Shown one piece after another: positions 1 through 20,000 of a DNA stretch of 20,000 nt (positions within the stretch are counted from its first letter, which is position 1; each line of letters begins with the position of its first letter). The stretch is from contig QPGO01000302.1 in the NCBI GenBank assembly GCA_008632985.1, forward strand, positions 46,042-66,041, read 5' to 3'. The position numbers were made by a program, and so were the translations under genes. Source of the DNA: Psammoneis japonica. Its lineage: Eukaryota. The notes beneath the pieces were generated by a model that saw nothing but the letters and a program-made list of their open reading frames with translations, made no database searches and was not told the origin of the DNA.

Positions 1-1
1 A

Positions 2-2278
2 CCTCAGCATCAAGCCAACAGCGCGTTTGGGAGCGGAGCATCCACCGGTGCTCCTCCTTCTGTGGCGGCTCTTGGAGCGGACTTGCTAGATAAGGACCAG
101 TCCCTTTCGTTAAAGCAAGTGAGGAACACATCTCATCTTCCAATTGTATCTGTCGATCTCTATGGAACTGAAGCGAAAATCGCCTCGTTTCCGCCCAAGT
201 CTGAGTCCTTGGGAGCTATTCAATTTCCCGCGTCGTCGGGATCGTTGTCGTCGACTCTGACCTTGAATGCTACCGAGGCTTCCCATAAGGCATTGCGCAA
301 GTGGTTATCTAAAAGCAAGGGGTATGAATCTGTTCAAACTGCTGTTCTAGTCAAGGGAGACAACTGTGTTGAAGTTGTTCGTCCTCATCAGCTCTTGGGG
401 GTTCGCCGGCTCAAGGACCTACCTCAGGACGTTCGCGAGTCCTATTCAATAGACGAAGATGACTCCCCAGCTATTGCAGAGGAAGCCAACGCAGGATCCA
501 TTGGAGTTTCAATCGCGAACGGGACCATGGACGGAGGAACACCCAACGGGGACGACTATGACCGGGTTGTGTTCAAGATTCGTCTCCATGAGAGCAAAAA
601 GGCAGTCACGATGCTTCCCGAGGAAGCAGTTGCTCTTGCATTAAACCAAGCAAAGTTCAAGGTTGCACGGAATACAAAGTCAAAGGATGACGAGGAGGAA
701 ATTTTGGAATACCCCATGGCATTGGCTCTTCCGAGTTGGGCTTGTGGCGATGCCGGTGTCGACGCGATCATGGATGCGGTCGACGGAACAGCAGTGATAT
801 TCCAACGTAACGTAGCGGCTCTTTCGGGTGCGCTCTTTCCTGGTTCTCAGCCGGGGTCGAAAAACGTAATCTTGGAACGATTGCAGAGCACCATTCAACA
901 GCGAGCACAGGAGTTTCAACGGGACAAGAGCCGCGACGAGGACGCGGAGTTTAGCGACGATTCCGTATTGATTGTGGTTGGGGTCTCGGCTGGTGGTGTG
1001 GAATGCACAGCCATTTCGGTTTCAAACTATCAATTGCTCTCGGGCCAGGCCGCGTCGTGTAACAGTTGTCCGTTTGGAAGCTTCAAGGTTTTGACCAATG
1101 TTGCGTACGCAACCAAAGACCCAATTGCCAAGCTCGGCAAGTGCATCAGAAAGCTTCAGTCCACCCTGGAAGACGTTGCACCAGAAGAAGACCTCCCGGT
1201 GGCGTTTGTTACGCACGGAACTGTTGCAGAGCAATTGGCTATCAACAAGGCATTAAAGGCGACAAAGCTAGAGTCGTGGGGCAACGTCCCAATGTTTTCC
1301 ACCAAGGCAGATTGTGTGGCAGTTGGAACTGCAATCCTCGGAGCCGTCGGTCACGGACGTTTACTAACTCCGGTGGAAGGTGCCACCAGTAAGAAGCACA
1401 TGACGCAGCGTGCTTTGCGCCTTTTGAATGTGGCTCCTACGTCCGTTGGCATTCGCATGAACTACCACGGTGACGATCCTAGCAAGTGGGCTCCCGTCAA
1501 GGTCATTTTTGACTTTGACCGTCGAGTCCCCGCCGGGCCTCATGTGTTGGACCTGGATGCCGCCGAGTGTGCCGCGCATCGCAACGCAAACGAGTTGGAG
1601 CTTACGCACGACGAAGCCTTTGAGGCAGCCAAAAAGTATCAGGGTTCCAAAGGTATTCCGAAGCGAGAAGAGGCCGCTCTTGGATTTCGAATGCAGATTG
1701 TGCAAAAGCTGACACGAAAAGGGGGGTGGATCCCTGTCGGTAACCCAATGAGTCCTCTCTCCAAGCGCGACGATGATGACGACGAGATTCGTCACGCCTT
1801 TGAGAGCTCAAAGCTTGAACTTAGCTTTGTTGCGACGGGTATTATCACTGCTTCACTAACGAGCGACGGAAAGTCAGTGGTGCAAGCTACGAAATCCGCA
1901 CGAAACTCCAAGCTACGATATTACGCAGGAGTGATTCTTGCTATAGCGTTCTTTGGTGGGTTCTTAATCAAGTCTTACTGGGAGGAGCATGTTTTTGAAC
2001 GCGATACGGAGCGTCTCTTGGCGTATTACAAGCACGTTATACCTGGCTCCTTCCATGATGGCGATCGACAAAACGCCCGGTACCTTGTTTGGAAGTACGG
2101 AGGCAAAAAGGCAAAGCTATGGAAGCGCCTTGAAACCAAGTATGGAGTGCCAGTTCGGCATGCTGACGAGTGGGACGATGATGAAACGGAGACAGAGGAG
2201 GAAGCTACAGAAAACTTGGACGAGGAAGAAAGCACCCAAAAGGCCGAAGACGGTGAAAACGAAGAGCCAGATCTTTAG
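2..2278 (+). CDS. Highly divergent Hsp70-like protein with a C-terminal TM helix, small helical domain and acidic tail ending EPDL (5'-partial)
   Basis: Frame is open from position 2, so the start lies upstream. Colinear Hsp70 echoes: VSVDLYGT (cf. GIDLGTT), LPEEAVALAL (cf. PEEISAMVL), MALALPSW (cf. AVITVPAY), DCVAVGTAILGA (cf. DEAVAYGAAVQA), LLNVAPTSVGI (cf. LLDVAPLSLGI). Hydrophobic YAGVILAIAFFGGFLI near the C-terminus. Confidence 0.6.
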   Translation, partial: PQHQANSAFGSGASTGAPPSVAALGADLLDKDQSLSLKQVRNTSHLPIVSVDLYGTEAKIASFPPKSESLGAIQFPASSGSLSSTLTLNATEASHKALRKWLSKSKGYESVQTAVLVKGDNCVEVVRPHQLLGVRRLKDLPQDVRESYSIDEDDSPAIAEEANAGSIGVSIANGTMDGGTPNGDDYDRVVFKIRLHESKKAVTMLPEEAVALALNQAKFKVARNTKSKDDEEEILEYPMALALPSWACGDAGVDAIMDAVDGTAVIFQRNVAALSGALFPGSQPGSKNVILERLQSTIQQRAQEFQRDKSRDEDAEFSDDSVLIVVGVSAGGVECTAISVSNYQLLSGQAASCNSCPFGSFKVLTNVAYATKDPIAKLGKCIRKLQSTLEDVAPEEDLPVAFVTHGTVAEQLAINKALKATKLESWGNVPMFSTKADCVAVGTAILGAVGHGRLLTPVEGATSKKHMTQRALRLLNVAPTSVGIRMNYHGDDPSKWAPVKVIFDFDRRVPAGPHVLDLDAAECAAHRNANELELTHDEAFEAAKKYQGSKGIPKREEAALGFRMQIVQKLTRKGGWIPVGNPMSPLSKRDDDDDEIRHAFESSKLELSFVATGIITASLTSDGKSVVQATKSARNSKLRYYAGVILAIAFFGGFLIKSYWEEHVFERDTERLLAYYKHVIPGSFHDGDRQNARYLVWKYGGKKAKLWKRLETKYGVPVRHADEWDDDETETEEEATENLDEEESTQKAEDGENEEPDL

Positions 2279-2657
2279 AGGCCGTTTGGAGCTTTTGAAA
2301 CTCCCAACAGGAGATCTGTAAGCGGGGAAGAGAGAAGAGAGTAGCTAGCTTGTGTCACCATACTGTAGCTTGTCTTCTGCATTCCACAATTTACTACTCT
2401 CTCTAGAGCTTGTCTAGAGTGAAAAAAATCTAAAAGTAGTCAGTTAGTTGGCCAATCTAAGGATGGAAATGCGATGCCGAATCAGATTCAGTCCTACTGA
2501 TTATTATTAGAAGTTGTCTAAGCGTTGCCAAAAGTGTTTCTACAACAAGAGAGAACTGTGGTACAAGTAGTCATGATACTACGGCCTAAGCAGTAGCAAC
2601 CACACTGTTTAATAGTATGAAGCAGATAGCATGGAAATGAGGACTGATGAATATGGT

Positions 2658-3647
2658 CTACAATGGTACGCTTGGCCATCCCACTCCAGCAGCTCTTTTG
2701 GATCGACCAAAAGCGGGATTAGACAGCAAAGTCGGCGGCTCGGCGGAAAGATTGAGCTGCTCAAGCTGTTGTGTAGGCGCTGCTGTCTCCGCAGGTACTG
2801 GTTTCTGGGAAGTTCTGCTTGCTTGATACATTTCTGGAGTCGGTGGAGTCGTTCTGATGTACCAGCCCCACTCTGGACTGACGCAGCCATTGCTCGCCAC
2901 ACCGAACGGCTTGGTGGGCATAACCAATCCGTTCGCTCCTCCACCAAACCCCTTGGGAGCTAGCTTCGACGATTTTCCTCGTCTCTCGAGGCCGATATTA
3001 GCTTTCATTGAGCGTGATCGCCTCATTGCTGACTTGACAGGCTTTGACCCGGCTGTACTCGAGGGTAAAAGTGGAGATGAGTTTGACGAGTCGCGACCGT
3101 CGTGCTCGGCCTGCTCCAAAGAACAAAAAGAAGAACGTTTAGAGTATGAACCAGCTGCTAAGAGTTCCAACAAATTGAAGAAAGAAGCACTTACTTCATC
3201 GATAACTACTGCGAGATCTTGACCGCTCTCGTCCGACCAACTCATCTTTTTCGATCTCTTCAAGTTAGGCTCGTCAACCTCAGCAGCGGTCTCTGCTGAG
3301 ACGGCATGATGCGCGTGCAAAGCTTCTTGTTCCGACGCAAACTCTCCAAAATGCGATATATCTGACCCAAGTAGTTGAGGGGGAGATCTTTTCTTGCTCC
3401 CGCTTATATCCACACATTGAGTCGATTCTAGAAGAGGCGATCGTCTTCCACGTCGCTCCGTGGTCACGCCGGCACCATCCGAGTCTTGAACAAGCTCCTG
3501 TTTCACTTTTTCTTCCTCGTCGCGTTGCTTTGCCATATCACCACCAATCATCCACATTATCGTTCCAACCACAGGAGCTCTCAAAAACACAGAGAAGAGT
3601 CCCAGGTCATCAACGCGATCTGCCTCCAATGGTTGCTCAAATGCCAT
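2658..3647 (-). CDS. Hypothetical Ser/Pro-rich protein, probably 2 exons (in-frame intron 3111-3194)
   Basis: Long ORF with likely ATG at 3647 (MAFEQPLE). GTAAGT donor at 3194 and CAG acceptor at 3111 give an 84-nt stop-free intron. Short motifs KKMSWSDESGQDL and SPEWGWYIRTTPPT. Confidence 0.65.
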   Translation of the reverse strand: MAFEQPLEADRVDDLGLFSVFLRAPVVGTIMWMIGGDMAKQRDEEEKVKQELVQDSDGAGVTTERRGRRSPLLESTQCVDISGSKKRSPPQLLGSDISHFGEFASEQEALHAHHAVSAETAAEVDEPNLKRSKKMSWSDESGQDLAVVIDEVSASFFNLLELLAAGSYSKRSSFCSLEQAEHDGRDSSNSSPLLPSSTAGSKPVKSAMRRSRSMKANIGLERRGKSSKLAPKGFGGGANGLVMPTKPFGVASNGCVSPEWGWYIRTTPPTPEMYQASRTSQKPVPAETAAPTQQLEQLNLSAEPPTLLSNPAFGRSKRAAGVGWPSVPL

Positions 3648-5819
3648 GGTCGTCGGAGCTTCTGGCAGCAAGTAAGCAGTGGCAACAAATTTTGCTTCGG
3701 GCTGGCGCTGAACGAAGAAACTGTTCTGTGACTGCAACACGCGTTGGGACCTGGTACAAAACCTACGTGACAACCTCCCGTACAAGTGCACTGAACGAAC
3801 TAATATACTTATTGGGAACTAAAGGTGATAATTAGTGGGTCGGACAAACTGGCTGCCTTCAACTTGCGCGCGAAGTGTCAAGGCAATCAAATTACTATCC
3901 TCATCTTTGAATAACTGAATTTGGGCTGGAATGGGGTGCGTCAGCTATCGTCAGCCAACTGGTAGAAAGGTCGTAGAAATATACATACGTGTTTTATAGT
4001 ATGTGACATGTACGGCGCGAAAATGCACGCAGACGCGCAAGATTGCCAACGTCTTATGTGTGATGGGCTACTGTGCTTCAAAGGAACGTTGGGATCGTGC
4101 GTGGCGTGCGCATCGCACTGTGGTTGCGGTTGAGAATCCCCATGGGATTCCCGGCCACCGCCTCAGCGGATCAGCACCTCGATGACGTGCAACAGTGATC
4201 CACAGCACTGGATCTAAGGTGTGTGATAAACAGCAGTAGTTGCACCGTAGAAGCAGCAGCTGACAGGAACCCGGACATGCGAGTCTGAAGGTCTGTGCAG
4301 CAATGCAGCCTGGACAAAATGGAGGACATCCGGCACTGTGCCGAGAACAAACGTCACTTCACCCATTCCACCAGGCGGAGGAGCAACATACCCCGCAACC
4401 AACCCCCAGTGCTGGGCATGCTCAGCAGCAACCTCGAGACGCTCCTCTTCCTTCCGAGTGGGGGGGGCGGGGTGCCGCGGCGATCCCTTGACACAACGCC
4501 ACAAGTTGGTCGTTCGTCATGCCGCCATTGTTGCCAACACCGCCAACTGCCAACAGACGATCCGAGATGTCGAAACCATCAAAATCCGCAGCGTCATCCA
4601 TCTTGCTCGCATCAAACAAAGGGCTGCCCTTCGTGACCGAGCGCTCGTCGTTGTTTGCTGCAATGCATTGCATGCCACGCTTCCATGCAGCTCCCAGTGG
4701 GAAATCCGCACCCAACTCCGGAGTGGGCTCATCCACAGGAATGCCACTGGGGAAAGTCTTGCCTGGTGGCAAAGGCAGGAACAGCTTCAGAACAGAGATC
4801 TGAGGGTGGTCTTCCGCAGCCGCAGGTGGAGGGAAATGCAGACGCCCCACAGGTGCAACCCAGTCATCCTCCGGTGGAGTTGTTGGGCCGTCAACAGTGT
4901 CCGGCGCCTGATTGCGAAGTCATTGAAGCTTGAAAGGAGTTGAGAGCGACAGAGACTGGGGTGTGACTCCCAATCTCGTCCGACAAGCTCCCAATGACAG
5001 AGGTGGTCCCTTCCGTCGAAGCAAACACTTGAGGGCGGGTGAGAATCATGATCCACTTTGAGCAAACAAAGGCAAACTGGGTTGCTTTCATTGGATTGGA
5101 TGTGACAGTGTGGCGAACCTCATGGTTCACACCCGGTCGAAGCGTCGAAGCCAGTGCCATTGCATTCTCGTCTGAGAACGGAAACGCTGTTGTGTGGTGC
5201 TGGTCAGCAGCACCACGACCCTGCTGGACAGCAGCGGCGGAAGGAGCAAACACAGTCATTGAACAATGACTTCACAGACTCAGTGTAAATGGCTGACTTC
5301 GGAAATTGTGAGGAGCCACTCCCATGGGTTCCGGCCGTGAACTCTGCAGGTGGAGCATCCTGTCCACAACTTTGTGGTGTTTGATTCAGATTTTCAAAAT
5401 TTTCAATGGCTGCAAACAATGTGAACCGTGAACCCTGCATGACGGTTGCTCTCAAGCAGGCACCACTGGGGCTTGGAGGACCCATCATGCTCCGTGCCTG
5501 CATCGAAACATTCGTGGCTCGGACAGACATGTTGTGTGGTCGAGCGCTGAGCATGCAGGACCAGCAGTTGAACAACCAGCAAGAAACAGAGATGCCATTC
5601 TCAAGAGGCACACACACATGAACATGTTCACAATCCCACACTCGACGCGTTCCAGATGCAGGTGGGAATCCGTGTGACATTGGGCCCGCAGACTTCTGCG
5701 TGCGAGCTCCGCAGTAAAATCACACGGTGATTAAAATGTCAATGATCGCCAACAGAAAATGAGGCAATTTTGCGAATGCACAAACTCGCACATGATTGAA
5801 GTACATCATTTTTTACTTG

Positions 5820-5858
5820 GCCAGTTACATTCTTCAGACATTGAAGAATGTAACTGGC
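5820..5858. repeat. Perfect inverted repeat, 17-bp stem with 5-nt loop
   Basis: GCCAGTTACATTCTTCA-gacat-TGAAGAATGTAACTGGC. Confidence 0.95.
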
Positions 5859-5934
5859 GCATCATTGTTTCTATAAATTTGTCACACAAAACGTCTGGGG
5901 AACAGCGAGTCTGGACAATTTTTTTAAAATGTCA

Positions 5935-5952
5935 CACGTAGAAATCTACGTG
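5935..5952. repeat. Short perfect inverted repeat with 8-bp arms
   Basis: CACGTAGA-aa-TCTACGTG. Confidence 0.85.
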
Positions 5953-6594
5953 CAAAACATACGACGGATGATAAAAATCATTGTTGTCACACGTCAGCAC
6001 TGCGAGCTCCCACCTGGGGCTGGAACGCGTCACTCGCACCAGCGAGGGGGTCAACCATGGCCGACAGCATGCGGCCATTTCCCGCCGGCGAGGGTGTGAC
6101 CCACACACGCCGAGCGGTTGTCAAGAAAGTGGCTTTTGGTTGCATAGAGGAGACCATCCTCTCAGTGTCAGGCATTGCCGCATTGGCACAGTAAAAAAGA
6201 GGGGGATGGAGACAACGACTGTTCATGAGTCGGTTCCGGAATCCCAGTCAAATTGCTCTGTCATGAGCGCAGAATTTGATGGAGTGAACATGTGGGACAC
6301 CTGTGTCACTCCCCGATCCTTAGCAATCATCAACAGAGTGTTAATTTTGCAATGAGACATGGTCGCTGCAGTGGACCATGGTTGCACCCCTCTGATGCTG
6401 ACTGCCAAGGGAACAATGCGTGGATTGGTCAGTCTAGGATCTCGTCGCGTCCGTTTGTCCTCCGTCCTCGGCCTCCCGTCTGTCCCTCGCTAGTCTACCT
6501 CCGCGATGACCCCCGCGACTCACCCAGCCACAGCTTCCTCTCATTGCTTGGCTTGGAGTCTAGGGCTAGAATAGATACCGGTAGATACTTTACG

Positions 6595-6661
6595 ATAGAG
6601 ATAGATAGATTTCTTGAAGATTGCTTGATAGATTGAATGAATGGATGGAATGGATGGATGG
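6595..6661. repeat. Imperfect microsatellite (GATA)n then (ATGG)n
   Basis: atagagatagatagat ... gaatgaatggatggaatggatggatgg. Confidence 0.7.
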
Positions 6662-6974
6662 AGCCAGCCACCGCACTCTCTCTAGAGCTAAGAGTTAGAT
6701 TTGCCATTGACAGTTTTGCTACACCCCAGAGAGCTCCATCCAGTACAGTCTCAACTCATTACTTCTATACTTCTGCATTTAAAAAAGTTGTTATCAATCT
6801 AATTCTACCTACTACTCTAACTCTACAACCACAGGCTCAGATATTCCACTAGAAAAATGATGGACGGAAGGAGCAACTATGTTGTCTTCCAACCAGAGCA
6901 CGTGAGCCTAACTTTCACGATTAAATGGCAAGATATGCTCGGTTCTAGCACCAACGTCGCTTTGATAAGTAACT

Positions 6975-9483
6975 CTATTGTTTTAGTTTGAATGTGCAGA
7001 ACTGACGATGCGTCGTTAAATCAACGGTATAGTCCGAACTAGTCAATACGCCACTTTCAATCTTTCGTGTCATCATATGAAGAAAGACGGAATTCCCAAC
7101 AGATACCTTTGCAAGACTTTTCAACTCCTCTGCACCAATGGGAGACAGGTCTAGTTGTGCTTGCAAGAGCTTGTCAACAGCTGCCTTGCTACGTTTGAAG
7201 CAGTCAGCGGCGGATGACAACAAATCGGTCTGCGTCACTTTGCTAAAGTCGGTGCCTTGTAGAAAGTCACTATACGATAGTGATGGTGGGTGAGGAATGA
7301 CTTGGAAAGCATCAAATTGTTTCTTGAATTTTTGCTCGGGTGACGTAAACTGGTATGTTTGGTGAGGCACAGCTTTCATTTGGTCTAGAGCGGTAATGAG
7401 CTATCGATACAGCGCGCAGAAACGATGCAAGGTTAGACTGGACTTGCGCCAGACATACATAAAGAATCACCGCAAAAAGGAATTGCAAAAGCTACTCACT
7501 CGAACGAGACCTCGACACAAATCTCGCCGCATTTGTACCAACACGATTTCAAATTCACTTCGCAAGTCCTGAGCCTCTTCTTCTTTTGTTTTCCCGTGAG
7601 TCTTTCTGCGTCCGGCGCCCTTCTTTTTACCCTTTTTCTGGGCTTCTGGTTGTGTCTTTTGTCGCCAAAGGGCTCTTGTCTGTTGAAACGAAACAATGCT
7701 GTTCAAAAGAGACGACAACAAAAAGTCTCTGTACCAATAAGCGGTCAACAACTCGCGGATTCCGCGAAAGAGTTCGAGCTCAATTCCAATGGCAAGGTGG
7801 CGATCCATGAGCGAGTTGGTTGTGCGAAGAATGTAGAGTGTAAAGATGGGAGGGGCGCTATCTGCACCATCACGCGCCCTGCTTTGTCCAAGGTCCACTG
7901 CATGCGCTTCTTGTTGTAGGGTTGCCCACTCTGGGAACATTACTGTGTCTATAAAAGCTCGTTGTCGATTCCGGTTCAAAAGAAATAGCTTGAGGGTATC
8001 GTAGATTGGTTTGGCTATACGACTCACAAAGGCTCGACAGTGGTGATTGTCAATGTCATTGAGTGGAACACCACTCGCTTCAACAATGTCTTGAGCAATA
8101 AGTGTTGTCACCACATGTTGACCCAAAAGAAGATCATCAAAATACAAGTAAAGAACTGATAGAGAGCGGCTGAGAATGTTCACCGACGAACTGGAGACGC
8201 GTTCCAACATGTCTCTGGTTCGACCCAGCGTCGTCCCTTTCAAAAGCAAGTCGCAAGCTACCCAGCTAACCTCAGATATAATTGTTTTGAGGGACCCGAG
8301 TGACTCTTTAGCAGATCGAAATATCGTTTTGCGGATAGGCGTGTTACCAACGAGGGGACGATTCACGTAGGGATCGAAGCACTTGGAGAGCAGCTGCTTT
8401 TCCGCGTCGCTGTACTCCGAAACGAATTTCTGCAGTTGGTCCATTTTCCTCTCTCCTAGAGCGATTATCGGCTTCGTTTTTGTGGCCACGTCACGCACTG
8501 TTGTCGCAGAAAGGCTTGTCTAGTTTCGCAGCGTTGCAGTCCACAAGCAATTGAGCTGTCTCGATACAACTATTTTCGAGAACACATTCATTTGTACTTA
8601 CCAACGGTAGACACGAACGAAGAAAGTCTAACAGAAATCCCAACACCAGTTTCACAACAGCACTGTTTGGATCGTCACCCACTAGAATAAGAGCATCATG
8701 AAGGGCATGAAGAGCGAATGCTTCGTCACCCTCGCCGAAAAAGTCTAGCAGTCCATAAGTATTCACTGAGAAATCTTCTTCCTCGTAAATGTCCGCATTG
8801 AAAGCAATGTTCTGAACGACAAAGGATATTGCTATCACACCTAATGCTGCTGCATAAACCACATGTTGTGCTGGAGTTGCGTTATTTGTCCCTGACTGGA
8901 TGACATGAGAGCGCCCATTCGTTCCGTCATGTCACCACCGGCACAATGAATTTGCATCTCTCTCACCACTTCAGCGTGCGTATACAAACAGCTAAAGGTG
9001 CTTTCACACACAGATGCACCACTCAGAAGTGATTCTAACCTTGTCAGTATCTCCAAACAAATGATTTCGGCTTCCTTCATTGTGAGTGATTCCCACGGCA
9101 AATTCTCGAGTCCTGTCGGTGTTGGTCGGGGCGGAACAGTTTGTTCACTAGATGCTTTCGTCGTATCATAAGCTGAAATGGGAAGTTCACAACAGTCAAG
9201 TTTTCGATCCATGAGCACAAGGGCAGTCATACTTGTGTGTAGGCTTTGGAGGAAGAGAGGCGTCTGCGTAAGTGTTTTACCACAACGAGGAAAATACCGT
9301 GACCGCGAGACATGCAACATACCTGAAATCATCACCACAGAGGAATGGATCTGACACCGATAAGGATGATGCGCATGATTCTACCACAGATGTGATATCT
9401 ACCCAGTTATCGCTGTCTTTAGAAACGTCGCTTTTCTTTTCGTCTCCGTCGCCACCGTTCAGCAACCCCGGCTCCGTCGTCAT
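6975..9483 (-). CDS. NAA35: N-alpha-acetyltransferase 35, NatC auxiliary subunit (MAK10)
   Basis: Family motifs WVDITS..SLHTSMTALVLMDRKLD, LSGASVCESTFSCLYTH, ADIYEEEDF, FDPYVNRPL, NRNRQR, GIELELF..AYWYRDFL. ATG at 9483; GT-AG introns 9244-9322, 8520-8601 and 7401-7499 restore frame. One unresolved frame change near 8860-8970. Confidence 0.9.
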
Positions 9484-9715
9484 GGTGGCTTTTTCTGCTT
9501 TTGCTCTCTTTTTTGCTTCGCAAGTGTCCGCGCGTCGCGTCGCGCGTCCCCTTTGGCTCTCGAAAAGAAGGAAGGACACTCTGTAGAAGATTTCAATTTT
9601 CCTTGTAGAAAAGACACGGCTAGCCGTAACACGTTTATGGCTGAGCACGAAGGACACGCTAAAAGCGCACCGCACAACATCTTTCCCTTCGCTTCTTGCA
9701 TTCCTTCCACGCGCC
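9484..9715. promoter_or_regulatory. Putative bidirectional promoter region between NAA35 and the Ero1-like gene
   Basis: Head-to-head start codons about 230 bp apart. Confidence 0.5.
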
Positions 9716-11054
9716 ATGACGATGGGATTGCCCTCCCGCGATGTCAAAGCCAGCTCAATTGGATTGTTTCTCTTGATAGGGACTGGTCAACTCTTGTCTC
9801 TAGTTCTTGCCTTCCCGACTAGATTTTCAAAGCCTTTTGGCGGGAGCGTTTCATGTCGTTCGTTTGTTTCTCAATCGAAAATTGCCTTGAGTTCAGTTGA
9901 AACAGTATCTTCGAATGAAGATCTTTTGCCAGGAATTGAAGCTATCGATTCTATGAATGCGGATCTGCGTGAAAGCCTTGAGTTGTTGCGCAATCAGCCC
10001 TACTTTCGCCTCTATAGTATTGACATGTTAGCCAGCTGTGAGTACTTACCACAAGAGCTGTTTGAGTGCTACAGCGAACGTTGCGAGATCTACCCAGTGG
10101 ATGAAGAAGAAGTGAGTATCGTGCTTCCATCCCTGTTCTATGCAATGATATGTGTTTACAGTAGTTATTTTTAACCAGATGATGATTTGCTCATGCCTGA
10201 ATGCGTAGATACCGACTGATATGAAAGATGTAGACGCAGATGAACATGATTTTGAGTTGGACGGTTGGGCTCGATGGGACATGCCAACTGATGACTACTA
10301 TGACATTGAACAGTTCCCAGAAGGCTACACAGGATACGACGGATCAGATATATGGCGCTTCATTCACGATCGGATTGCTTTTGAAGGCTACGAATACGAT
10401 GATGATCATTGGAAGGCAGACTTCAACAAAGCTGTTTCGGGTTTGCATTCAATGATATCAGCTCAGGTCGTTAGAGGAATCCAAGACAAGATCGACAGTG
10501 GCGAAGAATTTACAGATGAGGAAATATGGCGTGATGCAGACGCAGAGTTTGAACGGCGTCTTGGTCAAGGTGGTGAGACCCCTCTGGCTATTGAGAACCT
10601 TTATTTCTGCTACATGCTTTTGCTTACCGGAGCGTCAAAGGCGAGAGACCGATTGTTGCAAGACTGTGATTCTGGAAAGATTGATGCAGATGCTGCCTCG
10701 GCTTTGAGGCCTGTTTTGTCAAGCGAATTACTTGATCACCCTTCTGTTGGAGTTGCGTACGCAAAGCTTCATGATCACGCTGTGAAGGACTCAGACTCCA
10801 AGGCTGCCTTGTGGGAGGCGCGGCTTCGAACAAGGGAACTAGTTCGGATCATGAATTGCGTTCAGTGCAACAAGTGCCGCCTTCACGGCAAAATATCCGG
10901 CATGGGACTGTCTACTGCACTACAGCTGAGCCTTGGCTTCACCGGAGAAGGTGGCGATGCGACGCGTGTTCATCGGGTGGAGCTCGCGTGTCTGATGGCT
11001 ACTCTCGATAAGTTCTCGAAGGCAATCGAAACATGTCAACGAATGCGTTCTTAA
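9716..11054 (+). CDS. ERO1: Ero1-like FAD-dependent thiol oxidase, 2 exons (intron 10112-10208)
   Basis: YFRLYSID..CEYLPQELFECYSERCEI (outer cysteines), PEGYTGYDG..IWRFI, VSGLHSMIS, IENLYF, IMNCVQCNKCRLHGK..GLSTAL (CxxCxxC). GTGAGT..TAG intron joins the two ORFs in frame. N-terminal signal-like peptide. Confidence 0.9.
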
Positions 11055-11482
11055 GGCAAAGTCCGACATTGCTACAAGCTCTTGATCATAATCATTCTCG
11101 ACTGAAGTACATTTTCTATATCTATAGGCAATTTTTAGATTTAACCTTTCGCTCAATCGACACAGATTCGCGTCCAACAAACTTTCATTATCTGCCCCTT
11201 ATGGCAGACATGGTGCGACATTTGGTTACCAATCAGCAGTATGTACTGTACTTCACTCCCAAGCTTCGAAGAAATTGTCCCTATGCAATATATTTGTTCG
11301 TGTGTCTCATCGTTGAGGCTCAAAACGCGTTTGTTTCCTACTTGGTTGAGGCAGCTGTAAACTCCCAGCTCACGGCTTCTTCCTCGACCTGCTTCACAAG
11401 AAAAGTCAGATGGCGACTCGATAACTGCTAATGAGGTTTCTCGAGGGCAGACACTTAAAAAAGGAGTCTCGGATCTGTTCGA

Positions 11483-13556
11483 TTAACCTGCAGTGTACGC
11501 AGGCGATCCGTTGAAACTGTCGGAACTAGGTTTTGGAGCTTGTATCTGTGAAGCGGAAGTGCTTTCGGTCTTGACAAGATCTGCGGTCGCAGGGATTGGA
11601 TTGCTTGAATCGAACGGAGAAGCTGGATTTCGGACCAACGTCACACAGAAACACTTAGCAATCCCATCGTCTCCCTTGATAAGAGAGACACAAAGACCAA
11701 GGTCATCTCGATCCTTCATCGATCCTCTGAGCAAACATGTTCTTTGACCTTGAGCCTTGGCATTAGAAGGCGGTGAAATCATTTGACTGATGAGGTCAAA
11801 CGCATTCTGTAGATCTTGACGACTTGTCAGGTTGAAGACAGTCATGGCACAAACTTCCTGCTTCGTGTAACCGGACAACGAACAGAAGAGTTCGTTGCAG
11901 TCGATAAAAGCACCGCCCATTGACGCAATCGCCTGATTAATTCGAAAGAAAGACAAACGGTTAATGCCCGGATTGATGAAATTGCGAAAATCGGACGATG
12001 GATTTTGGGACAATGTACCCTAACTTACCATACCCACTGAACATGAATTGAAGACAAACCGATATTCATGCTCTGCGATGTTTGACACCAACAAAGTATC
12101 ATCCTGTCGGTCGTCTTTGGGGTTACCAGGGTCATCGCCACCTCCACTACTCGTGTCCGGCTGTGCAAGAACAAGATAAACGGTCAGCAAAATATATCTG
12201 AATACAAATATTCCGCGCAGGAATCAGATACGTACCTGCTGATAAAAGCTCATAGCTGATTTCGGTGGCACACCACCGAAGTTTCCAAGAGACCAAACAC
12301 CATTCTGAGCCGCAACGTGCCGTACAGCCTTGGCCGCTTGCGGACCCAGTGCACCGCCTCCAATCATCTGTAGCTGCTGAATCAACTGATGCCGATCTCT
12401 ACTCACAATCAAAGCAGAGGAGGCGGAAAAGCAAGTTCAGAAAAGAATCCTTTCCAAAGGGAACTGAAATCGGCACTTCTCGGCACTTACATTTCGGATT
12501 TGTATTGATGCTGCTGCAGCATTCTGATGTAGTTGGCAGCTTCCGTCAACACCGAGCTTTTCGTTCCTTTGGGAACTATGACGCCACCACTAGATAAGAG
12601 GTTCCGAAGCTCGTTGATTTGTCGAGATATACGGAAACTCCTCTCCTTCTCGCGTGCATTTCGTTCCTCTCTCTTCTGTTCGTCAAGGTGCTTTCCTTTC
12701 TTAGCTTTGCCTTTCGCTGACTTTGCAGCTCCCGAATCCTTGGTCGCAGAGTTCGTCGCCCCTGAACTATTGGCGCGCGAAGATGGCGCACTGTCCGGGA
12801 TTTTGGTCTTTGCGTTCTTCCGACCACGTGAGGACTTTGCCTCATCGTCGTCGCTGTTGTACCCACCACTGTCGTTGTCTGACTCTCCGTTGTCTCTAGT
12901 GCGGCGCTTCTTTCCAGATAGTTGGCGAGTCCCTGAATTATTTGTACGACGAAAGAAGAGATTGAGTTAGTCACATGCATAAGCGTGCAGAAAATGAGCC
13001 TTTCGGGTTGCGAAAGACATTCACTCCATTCGTTACCTTGTTTGTTTTGGACTTGCGTCGAATCTGCCGCAGAGCTAGGCTTCTGATTCTTTCCACCTCT
13101 GTTGGCTGAGTTAATCGGTGATTTTGGCAGAAGGTTTGGAGTAGCAGCGATAGGTCCTTTCGGGGCAGTCCCTGCTGATGCCCGAGGTGAATATGTGCTT
13201 GCTTTTCTCCCACCATCGCTATCGCTTTCTCCGTTCTTCGCGTCAATCTCAGAAGCCTGAAGCGATACTCCGTTCAGCATGGCTTCCTCGCTATCGAAAT
13301 TGAATCCAAATGTATTATTTCCCAAACTAAGAATGCCTGAGTTGTCTGAGTTGTTCCCGCTGCCTCCGCCACTTGAGTTACTGCCAACGCCGCTCCCATC
13401 TCTCTTCAAGGTACGATCTTTAGTCGCTCCATTTGATGGCTTTGAACCTGCATCCGCGGCTGCAACTTTCTCCTTTGCGTCTGATATTTTTTCTTGGCTG
13501 TTTCGCGGGGGCGGTGCTTCTGAACTACTTTTCATTGATAGTCCGCCTTTGTCCAT
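11483..13556 (-). CDS. bHLH-PAS transcription factor (diatom family that includes RITMO1), 5 exons
   Basis: Introns 12933-13036, 12399-12490, 12161-12235 and 11933-12028 (all GT-AG) give one frame. bHLH: KREERNAREKERSFRISRQINELRNLL..KGTKSSVLTEAANYIRMLQ. PAS: YRFVFNSCSVGMAIASMGGAFIDCNELFCSLSGYTKQEV..TVFNLT. Confidence 0.9.
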
Positions 13557-13685
13557 AGCGAAGGTTTGTTCGGGATAGTCTACTAGCTAGAGATTGAGAA
13601 CAAGAATGAGAGATTCCATAACGTTGGCAACAATGCTGTAAACGAGAACCCGCGTGACGACGTATCGACTTCCAGACACGACACA

Positions 13686-13693
13686 TGACGTCA
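13686..13693. promoter_or_regulatory. CRE palindrome TGACGTCA, candidate bZIP/aureochrome site
   Basis: 130 bp upstream of the bHLH-PAS ATG; further TGACGT hexamers at 14092-14097 (-) and 14118-14123 (+). Confidence 0.35.
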
Positions 13694-14408
13694 GTTTCGA
13701 CAGGATGAAGAACAATATGCACGTAGCAACACGTACGCCAGTACCAAGCAACACTCCCGCCAACACAGCCACCGCTGAAAACAAAGACGATGACGACAAG
13801 AAAGCGTGCTTTTAATCGCTTCGATAACACACGATTTCACGTTGTCACTCACTTCTTTCCTTTATCGATGATTTTCTCAATACGATGTGAATTCCCAACG
13901 GGTCAAACCTGGGTGAGGTGACATGTATTAGCGACCGGCTCTGTCTCTGTTGAACTTCTTTGCCTCTTTCTTTCTCTCGTATTTTTTGTGCGGTGTTGTG
14001 TGACGACAGCACTTCTTGTTCGAAAATATATTTATATTTGTATATGTTTATAATTTCATTCAGTATTCAGTCATTAATATTCATAAGAAGTACGTCACCC
14101 GTCTCTGACGAATATGATGACGTTATCACTTATGACCGTGTCATTTTATTTATTCCATGGTAAAACGTGAAAAAGTTCCCGCCAAAACTAACAGATAGCC
14201 CTGCTTATTATTTACGAGCTCGAATTTGCACAGACATGCTCCAGAGCGTGTCTGTGCATTTACGTAGATTTTGTACCAGTCGCATCGTAGAGTGATGTTG
14301 TTCGCCTGCCCCAACGAACTCTTTCTCGTACATAAAATATTACTCACGCCTGCCGGATAGGTTGGAGGTACATTTTCCTGGTACAAACACGTAGAATTTA
14401 ACGCAGCT

Positions 14409-14479
14409 GCAGTGACCCTCGTTTTGGGGGGTCACTGCACGCGCGGTGGCAGTGACCCTCGTTTTGGGGGGTCACTGCA
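14409..14479. repeat. Two identical 31-bp hairpin-forming direct repeats, period 40 bp
   Basis: GCAGTGACCCTCGTTTTGGGGGGTCACTGCA at 14409-14439 and 14449-14479; each has a GCAGTGACCC/GGGTCACTGC stem. Confidence 0.95.
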
Positions 14480-15260
14480 TAAGCAGGGATAGTGGCGCGA
14501 CCGAAAGACCACAGTCATCTTTAATCTACTCTACTATCGTTCTCTATCTCTCTCTACTAGGAGTACCGGTAGGGGGCCTTTCTACAGTAGCTACAGTAGA
14601 GAGTAGAGCCTCTGCGTACTCTCTCTAGCTACGGTAGCTCACTGCTCTAGTAGCTGGCAGCTCTCTGCTCTAGAGAGTGGAGCTAGAGTGCCTTAGTAAG
14701 GAGAGGAGTGCATGCAAGAGAGCTGCCATACTACTAGCTAGCTAGATTCCCTACTTGACCAAGAGGAGAAAAGCATGGTTAACACCATCTGCATTGCAGC
14801 AGTTTCTGCTGAGCGTGATTGCGCTGGTTCGCCGGGACCAGGTTTCTCACAAACAAAGAACTGGGACTTCCGAGCGGGAGACTAAGTGTAGCGAAAACTG
14901 GTACAGTGCCGAAGGAGTCCTCACTCTGGAGATATCGACAAGGTTCAAGGTGGTGGTGGACCAACACGCGCTTCAACCATTGTTTTGCACGAGTGCTGCA
15001 GCATGCAGGTGCTCGTTGAGTGAGTATGGTAGTCGGTGGAATGCGAAAGCATGCGCGATCTTCACCCCGGCTCACGCACGATCGGGTGACTCAACACTCA
15101 ACCAAATGAAGACATTCGATGGGTCAAGCGACTGTACATTGTCACTTCAAATAGGTACGACGTCGATTTTAAAAGATATATCCATTGGCCTGAGAAAGAA
15201 AAGGGTGCGATTATGACAGACAACCAGCAAGATTCGGTAGCCGCTGACCAACGACCAAGC

Positions 15261-16076
15261 ATGGCAAAGAAAAGAAGCAGCTTGTTCAGTCGAGCAAGGC
15301 AGAGTTTCTACAGGTGCGTCGATGTTGTTGGTAAACATTGACAACTAACGAGCACGTCAGATCTGGAGTTTTCTGTTGTCGGATATCCCTGATTGCGTTC
15401 TTTCTCTGTTCGTGCTCTTTCAGATCTGGGGGGAAGAAAGGTGCCAGCGTGGAAACCCTTCGCGGAAACAAAGGTGCTGATTTTGAAGGGCACGCCCGAG
15501 TGAAACGGGGGAAGACAAGAGGCTTAGGTTGCTCATGCTTTGGTGGAAAGGAGGTAAGGCATTACGAGTCTCCTTCAACCTTTACCGCCAAATTTCTGGC
15601 AGGTCGAGTCGTCCCACATACTTTACTCTCCTCGCCTCTTTGCACAGGAAAAAGATCGTTTTATACTCATCAAAGGGCATTTCTGCTTCGTTTTCTCAGA
15701 CGAAGATGCGAAGTCGCCCAAGTATGCCATCGATCTCACACATAGAAAAGCTTCGATTCAAGAAGCATCAAGGGATGGTAAAACGGTTGTTCTATTAGAG
15801 ACAGGCCTCGGTGATGTGGATTACGAATTTGTGTTCGACACCAAGCAGGACAAAAATATTGCAAAGAAGTTTTCTAGCGCCGTCGGAGAAGAAGCTGCTC
15901 GAGCGGAAGCAGAACTTGTGAAAAAGCGTCTCGGCCACGAGCACTTGATGAAGACCCGGCCCTCTGTCAGATACGCGGAGAAGATTGGCGAGAAGAAAGT
16001 TGAGAGTCAACCTGATGCTCCTGTAACAGCTGCCGAAATTGCTGATGCCTCTCCACTGCCGATGAATGCTATCTAA
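15261..16076 (+). CDS. Small hypothetical protein, possible PH-like fold, 3 exons (introns 15314-15423, 15554-15647)
   Basis: Splicing gives MAKKRSSLFSRARQSFYRSGGKKG..DFEGHARVKRG..GGKE/EKDRFILIKGHFCFVFSDEDAKSPKYAIDL..VVLLETGLGDVDYEFVF..PMNAI*. The RFxLxxxxxxxF..P...I.L pattern resembles PH-domain beta strands. Confidence 0.7.
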
Positions 16077-16198
16077 AGCTATTCCTCAAGTTGTAGTACA
16101 TGAAGCGGCACAACAAGAGATCCATTTTGTGTGAAGCGAAGAAGTCTAGAGATATCTAGTAGAATGTCCCTGCGTGTTCGCCCTGCGTGTTTGGTGCC

Positions 16199-16971
16199 CT
16201 ACCTTCCAGTTGGACGACCAGCCACTGACACTAAGTTGATGCAGTATCGATTGCCCTTTTTGTCCGGGAGATTATGTCCAAGATGAGTTCCGTCTATCGA
16301 CACTGATTCTCCGTCAGGGAGAATCCTCATGTTCTCCCAAACGACCTCGTCGTCTCGAAACGACGGCTTGCAGCACAGAGAAAAGTTCAGTGGGCCACTA
16401 AATGCACATAGTACTTTATCAGAATCATATCGACGGTACGGCACTTACCCACCCATGGGAACGGCTCTCAATGAGAAACTCCTCCATAGTCCTGCCTCGC
16501 GGAGCAATGAAAAGAGGTTTGCCAGTGTTTGAGTCGTAGAATGTGATTTCACCTTTCGCAGTTTTAGCGTCATCAATAAACGAAGTCTTCTCAAAATACC
16601 CAGAGTGTTCGGCGTAGTGTCTAGTGTTGTCGTTTTGGGCAGGTTCGAGAATGAAAGTTACATGCAAAAGAAGTCATGAGAGGGTGCGTGAGAACCACGA
16701 AACAACCAAAGTACCGTGTTACTACAGCAAACTTAAATCTCCTCCCTACCTGTTGAAGTTGCAGATTCGATCCGCAGTACTTTTATCACATCCCCATCTT
16801 AAATTATCCTGAACAGGTCTGCAAAAAGAACACGAGCAAACCGGTGAATGAAACTAAGATTGAGTAACTCGCTGTCAAAGCCAAAAAAGGCTCTTACGTG
16901 TTCGAACTACCATGTTTCTTTTTAGCCATGATAGTTTCATCGCCCATAACCACTTTACTTTGTCGACTCAT
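16199..16971 (-). CDS. MsrB/SelR-like (Mss4-fold) protein, 4 exons (introns 16819-16897, 16621-16749, 16367-16448)
   Basis: Spliced product MSRQSKVVMGDE..CNFNRHYAEHSGYF..GKPLF..HGWPSFRD..GTHLGHNLPD..RYCINLVSV matches the MsrB motifs GWPSF, HLGH and RYCIN. Confidence 0.8.
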
Positions 16972-17522
16972 GGTGATGCGGTGGCCGAAAGGAGGGAGGA
17001 AGATGGTAACAACAGAGCAAGAGTTTTACTACCGGGATGCTGTCAGCGACGGCAGAAGGCCGAAGGCCGGCCGCCGCCGAAGCCCGAAGCTGAAATGAAA
17101 AACGATGAGCGCGACAAACGTGCCGTGCCAGGGGCAGACGTTGTGTTCAAAAGCCAACTAAAAAACAAATTGGTTCCTCCTCCTCTTTTAGGTGGAACTC
17201 TCTAGATAGATCGAAGTCTGAAACCGAAAGATTTTGGATTGCCGCCCTCGCTACTATCAGAAAATAGAGCCATGACGATTGCCTGCACCAATCATTTTGC
17301 TGCATTTTGCGCCGGGCGTTCGAATTAATTGTGACACATGACGGTCATTTCGGTGCGCACTTTTGCGCGACCCACGCGACATGACTAACATGCGTTAGTG
17401 CGTGGTGCTGGTTGTTTTGCTTCTGACCGTTCTGTCTTCTGTGAGGTTTCATGAGGCTGTCTGTGCACATTGATGTTGTCCAGTTGTGCATGTTGATGTT
17501 GTCTGAGGCAAGCTGCATTGGA

Positions 17523-18096
17523 TCAAGTGAACGTGGAAATGTGCGAAATTTGCGCATTGTTGCAGTTTCTTTGCCAAACAGCCAGTCCTTGTTCATGGCC
17601 ACACTCAATCCACGGCGGCTTAAGTGAAAGTCCATGTGCATGTGTTTTGCGCATTGATGCAGTTGTCTTTGCTGAGTGGTTGTTTGCAACTTGCTCAATT
17701 CCATCACCTCTGGCCACACTTCTTCTGAAGGGACTTTGCTTGCTCCTTCTCCTGCTCCGCCATCTCCTCCTCGGTGAAAAATCTCCCCGACCGCTGTGGA
17801 ATCGCCGCTGCACATGCTGCCTTCAGCTCCTCCATGGTTGAATCATCCTTGGGCGCGACCGTTGTTTCCACATGATGACTGTCCGCTGTCGTGTTGTCTT
17901 GCACAAGTGCAGAAGTGACATCAAAATTTCCCGAGGCAAGGTCAAACGCCGCTCTTGCTTCTTCCAAGGTAATCTCCTCTTTGTCTTCCTCACTCATCAA
18001 TGACTGAAGAAGTTCCGCATGTGTCTGCACCTTTTTCTTGTCCTCACCAGTTTTCTTTGGCTCGTCTGCCTTCTTTGTTTGTTGTTGCAAATCCAT
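17523..18096 (-). pseudogene. Degenerate accessory ORF downstream of the helicase, with a UBA-like segment
   Basis: Charged ORF MDLQQQTKK..ITLEEARAAFDLASGNFDVTSALV.. with no Tyr, apparently continuing in another frame (KPPWIECGHEQGLAVWQRNC). Confidence 0.4.
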
Positions 18097-18230
18097 GTTT
18101 TCTCCATTGCTGCGTTTTCTGTGACGGCTGCGTTCGCGTTTCTTGGTTTGTTGGTTAAAATCCGTTCGACGTTGTGTGACGCATGTGCAGATTTCCATGC
18201 AATGTGCTGATCTAATTGAAACATTTTGTT

Positions 18231-19939
18231 TTACGAAATTTCCGCATTTTTGCGGTTGGGGTCGCCAAACAGTTGTGCAGTGGTTGAGCATCCTAATCTA
18301 ATGTTTGTGCACCACATTGACATTTCTGTGCACTGTTGCTGAGAAAAATGCATGGCGCTTCTCTCCTTCATGAGTCTTGTCAAGGCTTTGCAGCCTTCTG
18401 GGACCTTGCATTTTCGCAGGTCCTTGCTCAGTGGCTTTCGCATGAACAGCCCTTCTCTGGTCTTTACTCTGGAGAGCACAACATGCACCCAATTCTGAGT
18501 GCAGCTCCAAGAGTGTGCAAACAACTGCGGGACTCCACTCCCTTGCAGTTTGTGCCCTGCAGTGGCATTGTTGATGACAAACGGCAGCTGGGTTGCCTTC
18601 AGTTGGAAAGTGTGCCTTTGTTCATCGCCTTCTTCTAAAATTAGGCTGGGCTTGGCGATGCAAGCCCTGAAAGCATTTGTTTTTGGCTCAACTAAAAACT
18701 TCGCGGGGTCGATGCTTTTGTTGCAGTGTTCCAATGCAACGTGGTCCACCTGACTGGCAAGTGCAGCAGGAATGCCAATGTTGTTGTCTAAAGTCACTGG
18801 TCTTGGTTCCTGTCCTGGTTTGAGAACGACCTTGTCAACAGTGGCTTGCGTTCCGTTTGCTTGACCGTTTGCCACATTTTCGTTGAAAGGTGTCATGACT
18901 CTGCATCTTCTGTAAATTCGTAAGACTGGATCCATTCTTCCTGATTGCATGACAACGTCTCCTTCACCACAGTTGTTCCAGAAGCTGTTGCAAACCGGAA
19001 ATGGTTGGCAGAGTCTCGTGCCATTCTGCACCTGCAAGTCGTCACTGAAAATCAACATTGAGTCAAGGACATCTCCATCTCTTCTGTGCAGTGTTTCTGC
19101 TCTTTTTTCGAACAGGCCAGTGTCAATTGCATCTCTGTCCTCATTTGCGCACACAGCACAGCGGAGGTCACTGGGCAGATCATCTTCATTCTGAACTGCT
19201 CGTTCGTTGATGTGCTCCATGTCGTCAACTGCAATCTTGCCAGTGCGGAATCTCTTGAGCAGTTTTCCCCATGATGGATCGTCTTTGAACCTGTGTGCAC
19301 CACGAAGTTCCATGCAGCAGTTGATCCACTCGTGAAACTCGGGACATGCATCTTTGTGTGGTGGTTTCACTCCTTTTCCAACTGGCTCTAGTTGCCTGAG
19401 GTCACCTGCGAGAACAATGTTGATGCCACCGTGCGGCTTGCTTGGTTCGCTCTTCAATGCTGTTAAATTCTCATGGAGTTTTTCTAGTTCTCTCTTGCTT
19501 GCAAAAGAAATCTCGTCCACCACCAAAAGTCTCGTGTCTGACCATGCTTCAATTTGCTCTTCGGTTGTTTGCTTTCTTCTCATGAGGCATGCAACTTGGT
19601 GGATTGTGTCCCTTTGAGAACAGTCGCAGCCACTCTGGTCAGTGCAGTCACTCTGATTGTGCTTGTTGTGAACGGCTGCTCAATGAGCGAGCAATGCTCT
19701 CTTCCGCACTCCACGACGAGGTCCATTGTGGTTGATTTGCCACTTCCACCTGCACCATGTAAAAAACACACAAGTTGCAATGTTCTGCGTCTTTGCACTT
19801 CCACGAGTTTCTTCAATCGGCGAAGGTTTGTTGCCAAATTCGTGTCTGCCATTTCTCCTGTTGAGTCATTGTGTGACGTCTCATCTTGAAGAGCGTCTTG
19901 GCAGCAAGTGAGCACAAAGGTTCCTGCTAGAAAAAGCAC
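18231..19939 (-). pseudogene. PIF1-family (SF1B) DNA helicase, degenerate and frameshifted at ~19610
   Basis: Walker A LHGAGGSGKST, Ia VTALTRVAA, Ib G/DTIH split by a 1-nt frameshift in the G run, Walker B LLVVDEISF, III GGINIVLAGDLRQLEPV, IV HRFKDD..LLKRFRTG, V QLPF..ATAGHKLQG, VI VHVVLSRVKTREGL. Confidence 0.9.
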
Positions 19940-20000
19940 GCTGCTGTTGCCTCCAGTCTTGCTTTCCTAGCCCAGTCTACGTGCGCTTGCTGCAGATCCG

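Follow-up and report, generated by a model that had tools for sequence, protein, structure and literature searches.

What could strip one dinucleotide from a piece of DNA and leave its base composition as it was? The question is raised by a 20,000-nucleotide (nt) stretch of the genome of the diatom Psammoneis japonica (contig QPGO01000302.1, positions 46,042 to 66,041), here called the window, which ends at 17330-20000 in a block that has lost nearly all of its TpA (T followed by A) and that appears to be the body of a multi-copy element of the Helitron family. We consider it probable, at roughly 80%, that this block records a DNA-level hypermutation of TpA to TpG or CpA that is aimed at mobile DNA, with ordinary decay of CpG on top of it.

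The block (2671 nt, GC content 0.487) holds 23 TpA against 164 expected from its base composition, an observed/expected ratio (o/e) of 0.14, and neither TAT nor ATA occurs in it, while the remainder of the window has a TpA o/e of 0.56 with 151 TAT and 152 ATA. Single-copy DNA was delimited by matching contigs of a public sequencing run to the window, where summed contig depth stands for many copies and is not a copy number: the depth is about 62 over 1-4162, 6543-14228 and 14462-17206, and rises over 17343-20000 to 3900-4500, summed over 3153 pieces that resemble the window at 80% to more than 99%. At the single-copy rate of 40.6 TpA per kb, 108.5 would be expected in the block (Poisson, 2.4e-23), together with 28.9 TAT and 27.6 ATA, and all 133 single-copy windows of 2671 nt have a TpA o/e of 0.49-0.67. 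The missing TpA is mirrored by an excess of TG (314 against 201 expected, o/e 1.56) and CA (217 against 129, 1.68), whereas CG is reduced (101 against 158, 0.64); AT, AA and TT are without depletion (AA o/e 1.57), and the GC content of 0.487 compares with 0.488 in the host DNA. The counts given in a preliminary description of the locus, namely about 23 TpA without TAT or ATA in the block and about 17 TpA in the first 600 nt of the window (17, or 28.3 per kb), were reproduced. Its block start at 17330 fits the TpA-poor part, which begins near there, but not the repeated DNA, which begins at 17207, directly behind the end of the single-copy contig at 17206.

The loss depends on the neighbouring bases. 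None of the 23 surviving TpA lies in ATA or TAT, as compared to 44% of the host TpA (p 1.6e-6), and, with both strands counted, 1 kb of the element holds 0 TAT, 2.6 TAC, 6.7 TAG and 7.9 TAA against 21.2, 21.7, 21.9 and 16.6 in the host. When eight purged stretches are pooled and related to normal loci, ATA/TAT fall to 0.04, GTA/TAC to 0.05, TAA/TTA to 0.11 and CTA/TAG to 0.14, followed by the four CpG trinucleotides (0.45-0.68) and AAT/ATT (0.72), with everything else at 0.82 or above. From this ranking, in which TAT is lost before TAC and TAC before TAG and TAA, which are about equal, it follows that the target is T-A with a pyrimidine preferred on the 3' side. AAT/ATT, the most depleted class after those with TA and CG, may be a secondary A-A-T target that is hit once TpA is exhausted.

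The block and the repeated DNA next to it comprise the following features:

17330-20000, no strand assigned: TpA-purged block, body of the multi-copy Helitron-family element, cut by the window end.
18231-19583, minus strand: 450-amino-acid (aa) frame that covers the centre and the C-terminus of a PIF1-like helicase, its tyrosines replaced.
19580-19939, minus strand: N-terminal helicase part with the P-loop (Walker A), in another frame, with weak AAA/P-loop Pfam matches.
17704-18291, minus strand: 195-aa frame downstream of the helicase, matching 0 Pfam families, which may be open only through the absence of TAA and TAG.
17207-17329, no strand assigned: repeated DNA with ordinary TpA (n=5) that separates the purged block from the single-copy flank, perhaps a repeat of its own, perhaps an end of the element that was not purged.

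The 450-aa frame matches the Pfam family PIF1 (PF05970) at 2e-12, scoring 47.7 bits where the cut-off is 25.9, and has 77 protein homologues. Further relatives come from 80 loci taken from metagenome contigs, among them L011, with a helicase 49% identical to that of the window, which joins a Helitron_like_N domain (PF14214, 5.4e-11) and PIF1 in one frame of 1423 aa. Its Rep region has counterparts, at 46-50% identity, ahead of the helicase in L002, L004, L008, L009 and L019, and these five loci sit with the window in a well-supported clade of 15 rows in our IQ-TREE tree. As members of this clade share a Rep region upstream of the helicase, the family consists of RepHel Helitrons, and the Helitron assignment made in the preliminary description is backed through these relatives. 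The window element is thus best described as a dead copy of a multi-copy RepHel Helitron, whose Rep part would lie beyond base 20000. It resembles known RepHel elements in its PIF1-like helicase and in the single Helitron_like_N and PIF1 frame of its relatives, and differs in that the window cuts it off before its Rep half. Helitrons typically begin with TC, end with CTRR and a hairpin, and insert between A and T; such ends were not recovered in the window, where the minus-strand fold of 17195-17345 was no better than shuffled sequences (z -0.04). As the P-loop part of the helicase lies in another frame, the window copy is frameshifted, near 19609; contigs making up 2562 of a depth of 4444 carry one extra base behind 19609, so this frameshift is private to some copies.

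Comparison with the homologues suggests what has been lost. Tyrosine (Tyr) accounts for 2.0-4.8% of the residues in 75 of the 77 homologues, but for 0.2% in the window frame and in the homologues P0002 and P0051. In agreement with the preliminary description, which counted 1 Tyr in the helicase as a whole and about 17 cysteines (Cys) in the 450-aa frame, this frame contains 1 Tyr and 17 Cys, and we find 14 histidines (His) besides; the 119-aa N-terminal piece contains 0 Tyr. Of ten columns in which Tyr is conserved across the family, the window keeps one and shows Cys in six and His in three, and P0002 keeps 1 of 14, with 6 Cys, 5 His and 2 phenylalanines (Phe) in its place, while three ordinary members of the family keep 11 of 11, 13 of 14 and 12 of 14. 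The positions earlier singled out as former Tyr sites agree with this, as the homologues carry Tyr there in 93% (KPHGG), 84% (WSC), 99% (WVH) and 83% (RKC) of cases; for VECGREHC, the assignment has a match by eye to MEYAREYC of a homologue in its favour, but the motif falls outside the column alignment of the homologues. The same replacement reaches the two-tyrosine motif of Rep, where L011 has Cys and His at positions that are both Tyr in 19 of 22 aligned relatives, and these two tyrosines we take to be catalytic.

At the nucleotide level, we examined in a codon alignment those columns that contain TA in at least half of 12 TA-normal relatives. In the window, 17 such columns now read TA once, TG six times, CA six times, TT twice and TC twice, and in L011, 16 columns read TA in none, TG in 8, CA in 2, TT in 5 and TC in 1, as compared to 130 of 182 columns, pooled, that keep TA in TA-normal controls tested alike. 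CG is the only one of the remaining 15 dinucleotides that is likewise poorly retained (2 of 12 and 3 of 12 columns against 64 of 120). As the lost TpA of the window have become TG about as often as CA, both strands have been hit, and the earlier claim of A to G changes on both strands stands, the more so as replacements of Tyr by Cys and by His are both seen. The 80 loci include no purged and unpurged pair that is close at the DNA level (the best reach about 64-75% identity over at least 100 nt), so the direction of change rests on the conserved columns, and these point to an ancestral family sequence that carried both TA and Tyr.

The purge is not confined to the window. The whole-locus TpA o/e is 0.02-0.13 in 5 of the 80 loci and, after a gap, 0.29-0.98 in the others; in all, the same purge is found in at least 6 of them, some with 0 TpA per 2-4 kb. 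L011 has 5 TpA in 4338 nt, L072 has 0 over about 1750 nt, and in L030 the TpA o/e drops from 0.5-0.9 to 0-0.09 inside one contig. In a quick maximum-likelihood IQ-TREE tree of 42 rows, which excludes rows that fell below 300 aa or contained more than one stop (among them the purged L030 and L071), the five purged rows sit on separate branches and require 5 changes of state, at least 4 of them forced by well-supported branches. A scan of viral contigs gave 597 pattern matches, none of which was confirmed as a relative.

Near-identical purged copies point in the same direction. Over 480 residues, P0002 and L011 show 9 differences, four of which fall on Tyr codons (Cys/Tyr, Tyr/His, His/Cys and His/Cys). 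Since Cys (TGY) and His (CAY) at one codon are two changes apart from each other and only one each from TAY, such pairs indicate independent hits, on the two strands, of an ancestor that still bore TA. Three further differences are asparagine/serine (AAT/AGT), at positions 138, 349 and 479 of P0002. In near-identical pairs of TA-normal loci, exchanges between TA and TG or CA are always the smaller share of the differences, with 24 of 252 (L045/L046), 3 of 22 (L044/L056) and 1 of 35 (L051/L052), but 6 of 14 in L006/L060. With an ancestry bearing TA and Tyr, at least four origins on the tree and Cys against His between close copies, the core of the preliminary description, that a DNA-level mutator acting on repeats fits best, has held.

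The window contains a second purged block, which belongs to an unrelated repeat:

4249-5714, no strand assigned: second TpA-purged block, a different low-copy repeat, with 2 TpA in 1466 nt.
4599-5241, minus strand: what is left of the first ~250 residues of a protein from a ~760-aa family, in two frames, placed by tblastn.
5337-6003, no strand assigned: very abundant short repeat or repeats with an internal perfect hairpin, mildly TpA-poor, summed depth 69196.

Its two TpA lie at 4389 and 5286, the TpA o/e in sliding windows is 0.02-0.21, and the summed depth is 286-336 against 62.9 in single-copy DNA. The protein it encoded, placed by tblastn at 5241-4599, has no Pfam match and no hit in a word-indexed search, and its family was found only by exhaustive phmmer (55 hits, best E 1.9e-13). 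The one conserved Tyr column that the remnant covers is Cys, and the family has Tyr-poor, Cys- and His-rich members of its own (e.g., P0207 and P0247). Within the window, both purged blocks thus lie in repeated DNA, and the single-copy windows keep normal TpA. The starts of the two TpA-poor blocks, at 4003 and at 17331, resemble each other in a short motif (TGTGACA..ATG..ACGG) and no further, and this resemblance may be due to chance. The short repeat at 5337-6003 has a perfect hairpin with a 16-bp stem near 5820-5860 and the look of a miniature inverted-repeat transposable element.

CpG has decayed alongside. Its o/e is 0.98 where the DNA is single-copy but 0.64 in the element, so that the earlier remark that CpG remains common is right in that CpG persists, but overlooks that it is reduced. 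The balance of the dinucleotides nearly closes: in the element, a deficit of 75 TA and 28 CG, 104 in total, faces an excess of 98 TG and CA, and in the second block a joint deficit of 57 faces an excess of 53. Ordinary decay of CpG to TpG and CpA has acted on the element as well and accounts for about a quarter of the TG and CA excess, with about 28 CG among the roughly 104 dinucleotides that are missing. In this, the element resembles DNA subject to deamination of 5-methylcytosine, with the reservation that methylation is judged from the CpG pattern; such decay feeds TG and CA, but explains none of the TpA loss. The most TpA-purged loci (L071, L072, L031 and L011) are also the most CpG-poor, with an o/e of 0.02-0.30, and this joint poverty could reflect either a long stay in methylated chromatin or one enzyme that acts on both A and C.

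The consequences for the encoded proteins follow from the context and from the genetic code. Tyr codons (TAY) are exactly the preferred T-A-pyrimidine context. In the helicase frame of the window, the surviving TpA number 1 at codon positions 1-2, 10 at 2-3 and 1 at 3-1, as compared to 3.3, 4.8 and 4.8 per 100 codons in the TA-normal relatives; no codon phase escapes the loss, and conserved catalytic residues are not spared. A change of TA to TG or CA never turns a sense codon into a stop and only removes TAA and TAG, and purged copies therefore keep long open frames, as in L011, where 1-4269 run through 1423 codons without a stop although essentially every TpA is lost and one Tyr remains in the stretch compared with P0002. 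The purged copies are thus predicted to be enzymatically dead by missense, with their frames open.

The closest known case is the chlorarachniophyte Bigelowiella natans. According to the main text of a preprint, 231 of 302 nuclear point mutations in mutation-accumulation lines fell in one integrated giant-virus and one virophage region; almost all of these were A to G or T to C, every such transition being at TpA, and they arose in place in single-copy integrated DNA, at a rate raised about 1000-fold in some lines only (Mettrop et al., bioRxiv 10.64898/2026.01.13.699255). The same text reports a class of 324 coding sequences poor in TpA, among which transposase and reverse-transcriptase domains are over-represented, and proposes an ADAT2-like deaminase and a defence against foreign DNA (Mettrop et al.). 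The likeness to the diatom lies in the change itself, which is only TpA to TpG or CpA, on both strands, hitting foreign or mobile DNA and sparing that of the host, and in the long-term trace of low TpA with high TpG and CpA. The differences, as far as the preprint's main text goes, are that B. natans is a rhizarian and P. japonica a stramenopile; that the inserts there are single-copy DNA of giant viruses and virophages, and here a multi-copy Helitron and an unrelated repeat; that TpA o/e is 0.45 in the nucleocytoplasmic large DNA virus (NCLDV) region there, while the purge here is near-complete (0-23 TpA per 2-4 kb); and that mutations were watched in lines there, and are deduced here from sequence comparison. 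The preference for a 3' pyrimidine, the co-depletion of CpG and the loss of the conserved Rep tyrosines go beyond what that text reports, and the words 'diatom', 'Helitron' and 'trinucleotide' do not occur in it. Our literature searches returned no other report of a TpA to TpG/CpA signature, and none in diatoms, so that the preliminary description was right about diatoms, but the signature as such had already been shown in B. natans in this 2026 preprint.

Other known systems share single traits. Fungal repeat-induced point mutation (RIP) likewise inactivates repeated or mobile DNA where it stands, through a transition hypermutation specific to one dinucleotide, and its products show a strong dinucleotide skew, but it runs in the opposite direction: it makes TpA from CpA, lowers GC and creates stops, whereas here TpA is destroyed (0.14), CpA gained (1.68), GC unchanged (0.487 against 0.488) and stops removed, and on these grounds we rejected it. 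RIP moreover acts on duplicated DNA, and the target in B. natans, as described, is single-copy. APOBEC3 and ADAR enzymes, the latter being animal proteins, resemble the present case in the context-specific, deaminase-type transitions that they cause in parasitic nucleic acids; their targets are single-stranded complementary DNA (C to U) or double-stranded RNA, in contrast to a DNA transposon without an RNA copy step.

We therefore propose, as the reading to which the above estimate of roughly 80% applies, that a DNA-level process aimed at mobile DNA would rewrite TpA to TpG, or to CpA when the other strand is hit (A:T to G:C at TpA only). The host may direct this process against mobile or foreign sequences to defend itself, in line with the proposal for B. 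natans. The chemistry would be adenine deamination to inosine by an enzyme of the ADAT2/TadA type. In tRNA, A34 follows U33, so the natural substrate of ADAT2/TadA has a U before the target A, and this chemistry would fit the invariant 5' T. More tentatively, and with somewhat more doubt than confidence, one may see in this a single conserved, enzyme-driven defence, an 'inverse RIP', common to diatoms, chlorarachniophytes and other marine protists, in which an ADAT2/TadA-type enzyme acting on T-A-pyrimidine leaves frames open and erases tyrosines; such a defence would be especially lethal to enzymes with a catalytic Tyr, such as HUH Rep proteins, tyrosine recombinases and topoisomerase-like enzymes.

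Of the other explanations, the nearest keeps the targeted process and changes the chemistry, to error-prone repair by a Pol-eta-like polymerase recruited to silenced repeats and turning WA into WG. WA motifs are the error context of such polymerases, and the three AAT/AGT differences between P0002 and L011, one AA to AG change among the listed differences between window copies and the mildly low AAT/ATT of purged loci, which fits a secondary A-A target, all speak for it; but ApA is undepleted overall, and a loss of TA trinucleotides of at least 10-fold against 0.72 for AAT is far more TA-specific than WA predicts, and we regard this version as unlikely. Less probable still is that the poverty in TA is a property of the element itself, through selection to avoid TA (because of TA-cutting factors or TA-targeting insertions) or through descent from a TA-poor donor. 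The 1423-codon frame of L011, the restoration of the helicase frame in the majority-depth contigs and the abundance of the family would suit a functional element, although open frames are expected anyway from a change that cannot make stops; and against such a property stand the scattering of purged rows among TA-normal relatives, the fact that conserved tyrosines of helicase and Rep gave way to Cys and His, each a single transition away, and not to Phe, the appearance of Cys against His in near-identical copies and the purge of an unrelated repeat.

Two further explanations seem to us very improbable, and about equally so. One is RNA editing of double-stranded transcripts, by ADAR- or ADAT-like conversion of A to I, followed by copying back into DNA. 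The usual preference of ADARs for a U before the edited A, as given in the discussion of the B. natans preprint (Mettrop et al.), and hits on both strands, as double-stranded RNA would give, agree with it; however, a rolling-circle DNA transposon with Rep and helicase has no reverse-transcription step, the non-coding ends of the block are purged too, and the preprint places the mutations of B. natans in single-copy integrated DNA. The other invokes no special process, but CpG methylation decay, GC-biased conversion, TpA damage in unrepaired silent chromatin, or an artefact of assembly or sequencing. A CpG o/e of 0.64 here and of 0.02-0.46 in the purged metagenome loci speaks for it, as do the 14 of 36 listed copy differences that are of the CpG type, but CpG decay cannot remove TA and was therefore rejected as the sole cause; GC-biased conversion is at odds with undepleted AT, AA and TT and with a GC content equal to that of the host, and an artefact with the same purge in several unrelated assemblies and with the match of the public-run contigs to the window.

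Several observations weigh against the hypermutation of mobile DNA that we favour. The direction of change is deduced from homologues and majority copies, and no de novo mutation was observed. The differences between copies within the genome come from a small, non-random sample, in which 40 of 564 variant places are listed, 36 of them in repeats: at 7 of these 36 the other copies have TA and the window TG or CA, and at the adjacent pairs 4224/4225 and 5267/5268 the window has TG and the other copies CA, all of which agrees with independent hits, but the TpA type is outnumbered by 14 differences of the CpG type (CG in the others, TG or CA in the window), and 11 are other changes. The Tyr replacements in P0051 are broader (three His, two Phe, two asparagine, one isoleucine and one glutamine) and less like a pure transition process. 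Repeats with ordinary or only mildly reduced TpA exist at 5700-6542 (20 TpA), 14228-14462 and 17207-17329, and in L030 a retroelement-type integrase frame (3-803) with ordinary TpA adjoins the purged, stop-riddled helicase remnant (1750-4169), so adjoining mobile elements can differ in fate. From the unpurged repeats and this normal integrase it follows that the targeting rule is not simply 'any repeat'. The earlier claim of a restriction to transposons is accordingly borne out in that only repeated DNA is purged in the window, and weakened by three repeated stretches that are not.

If the proposed reading is true, a process first shown in one rhizarian alga, as the preprint describes it, also acts in diatoms, which are dominant and genetically tractable members of the ocean phytoplankton. 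Given that the signature was shown experimentally only in 2026, and in an unrelated alga, the process may be widespread; the purge appears in several environmental eukaryotes besides this diatom, which would move it from a one-species curiosity towards a widespread defence against mobile DNA. DNA would moreover be edited from A to G in nature, which is otherwise known chiefly from engineered base editors, and the process raises GC locally, opposing the usual AT-biased mutation pressure. In practical terms, gene callers would report as proteins what are dead transposon genes, recognizable as open frames that are free of TpA and Tyr and have an excess of Cys and His, and maps of low TpA with high TpG and CpA make it possible to locate targeted DNA cheaply, whatever the assembly.

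The rest of the window holds host genes and a further repeat. An ERO1 gene lies on the plus strand at 10221-11054, and its best named relatives are found in diatoms, with 77% identity to a cluster including Asterionellopsis glacialis, 70% to Epithemia and Mayamaea and 66% to a Pseudo-nitzschia cluster; a NAA35/Mak10-like gene lies on the minus strand at 7467-9338. Contigs of run X2, which is labelled 'DNA?', cover neither purged block, which is not evidence that the elements are silent. Over 9782-16898 these contigs are spliced, at joints with GT..AG or CT..AC ends (for example 10111-10209, 11931-12028, 15310-15421 and 16620-16750), and thereby give the intron positions of host genes. Between two single-copy parts, the stretch 14228-14462, which no single-copy contig bridges (bin depth 875, TpA o/e about 1.05), contains most of two tandem 40-nt units (14402-14481), each with a palindrome around a T4G6 run.

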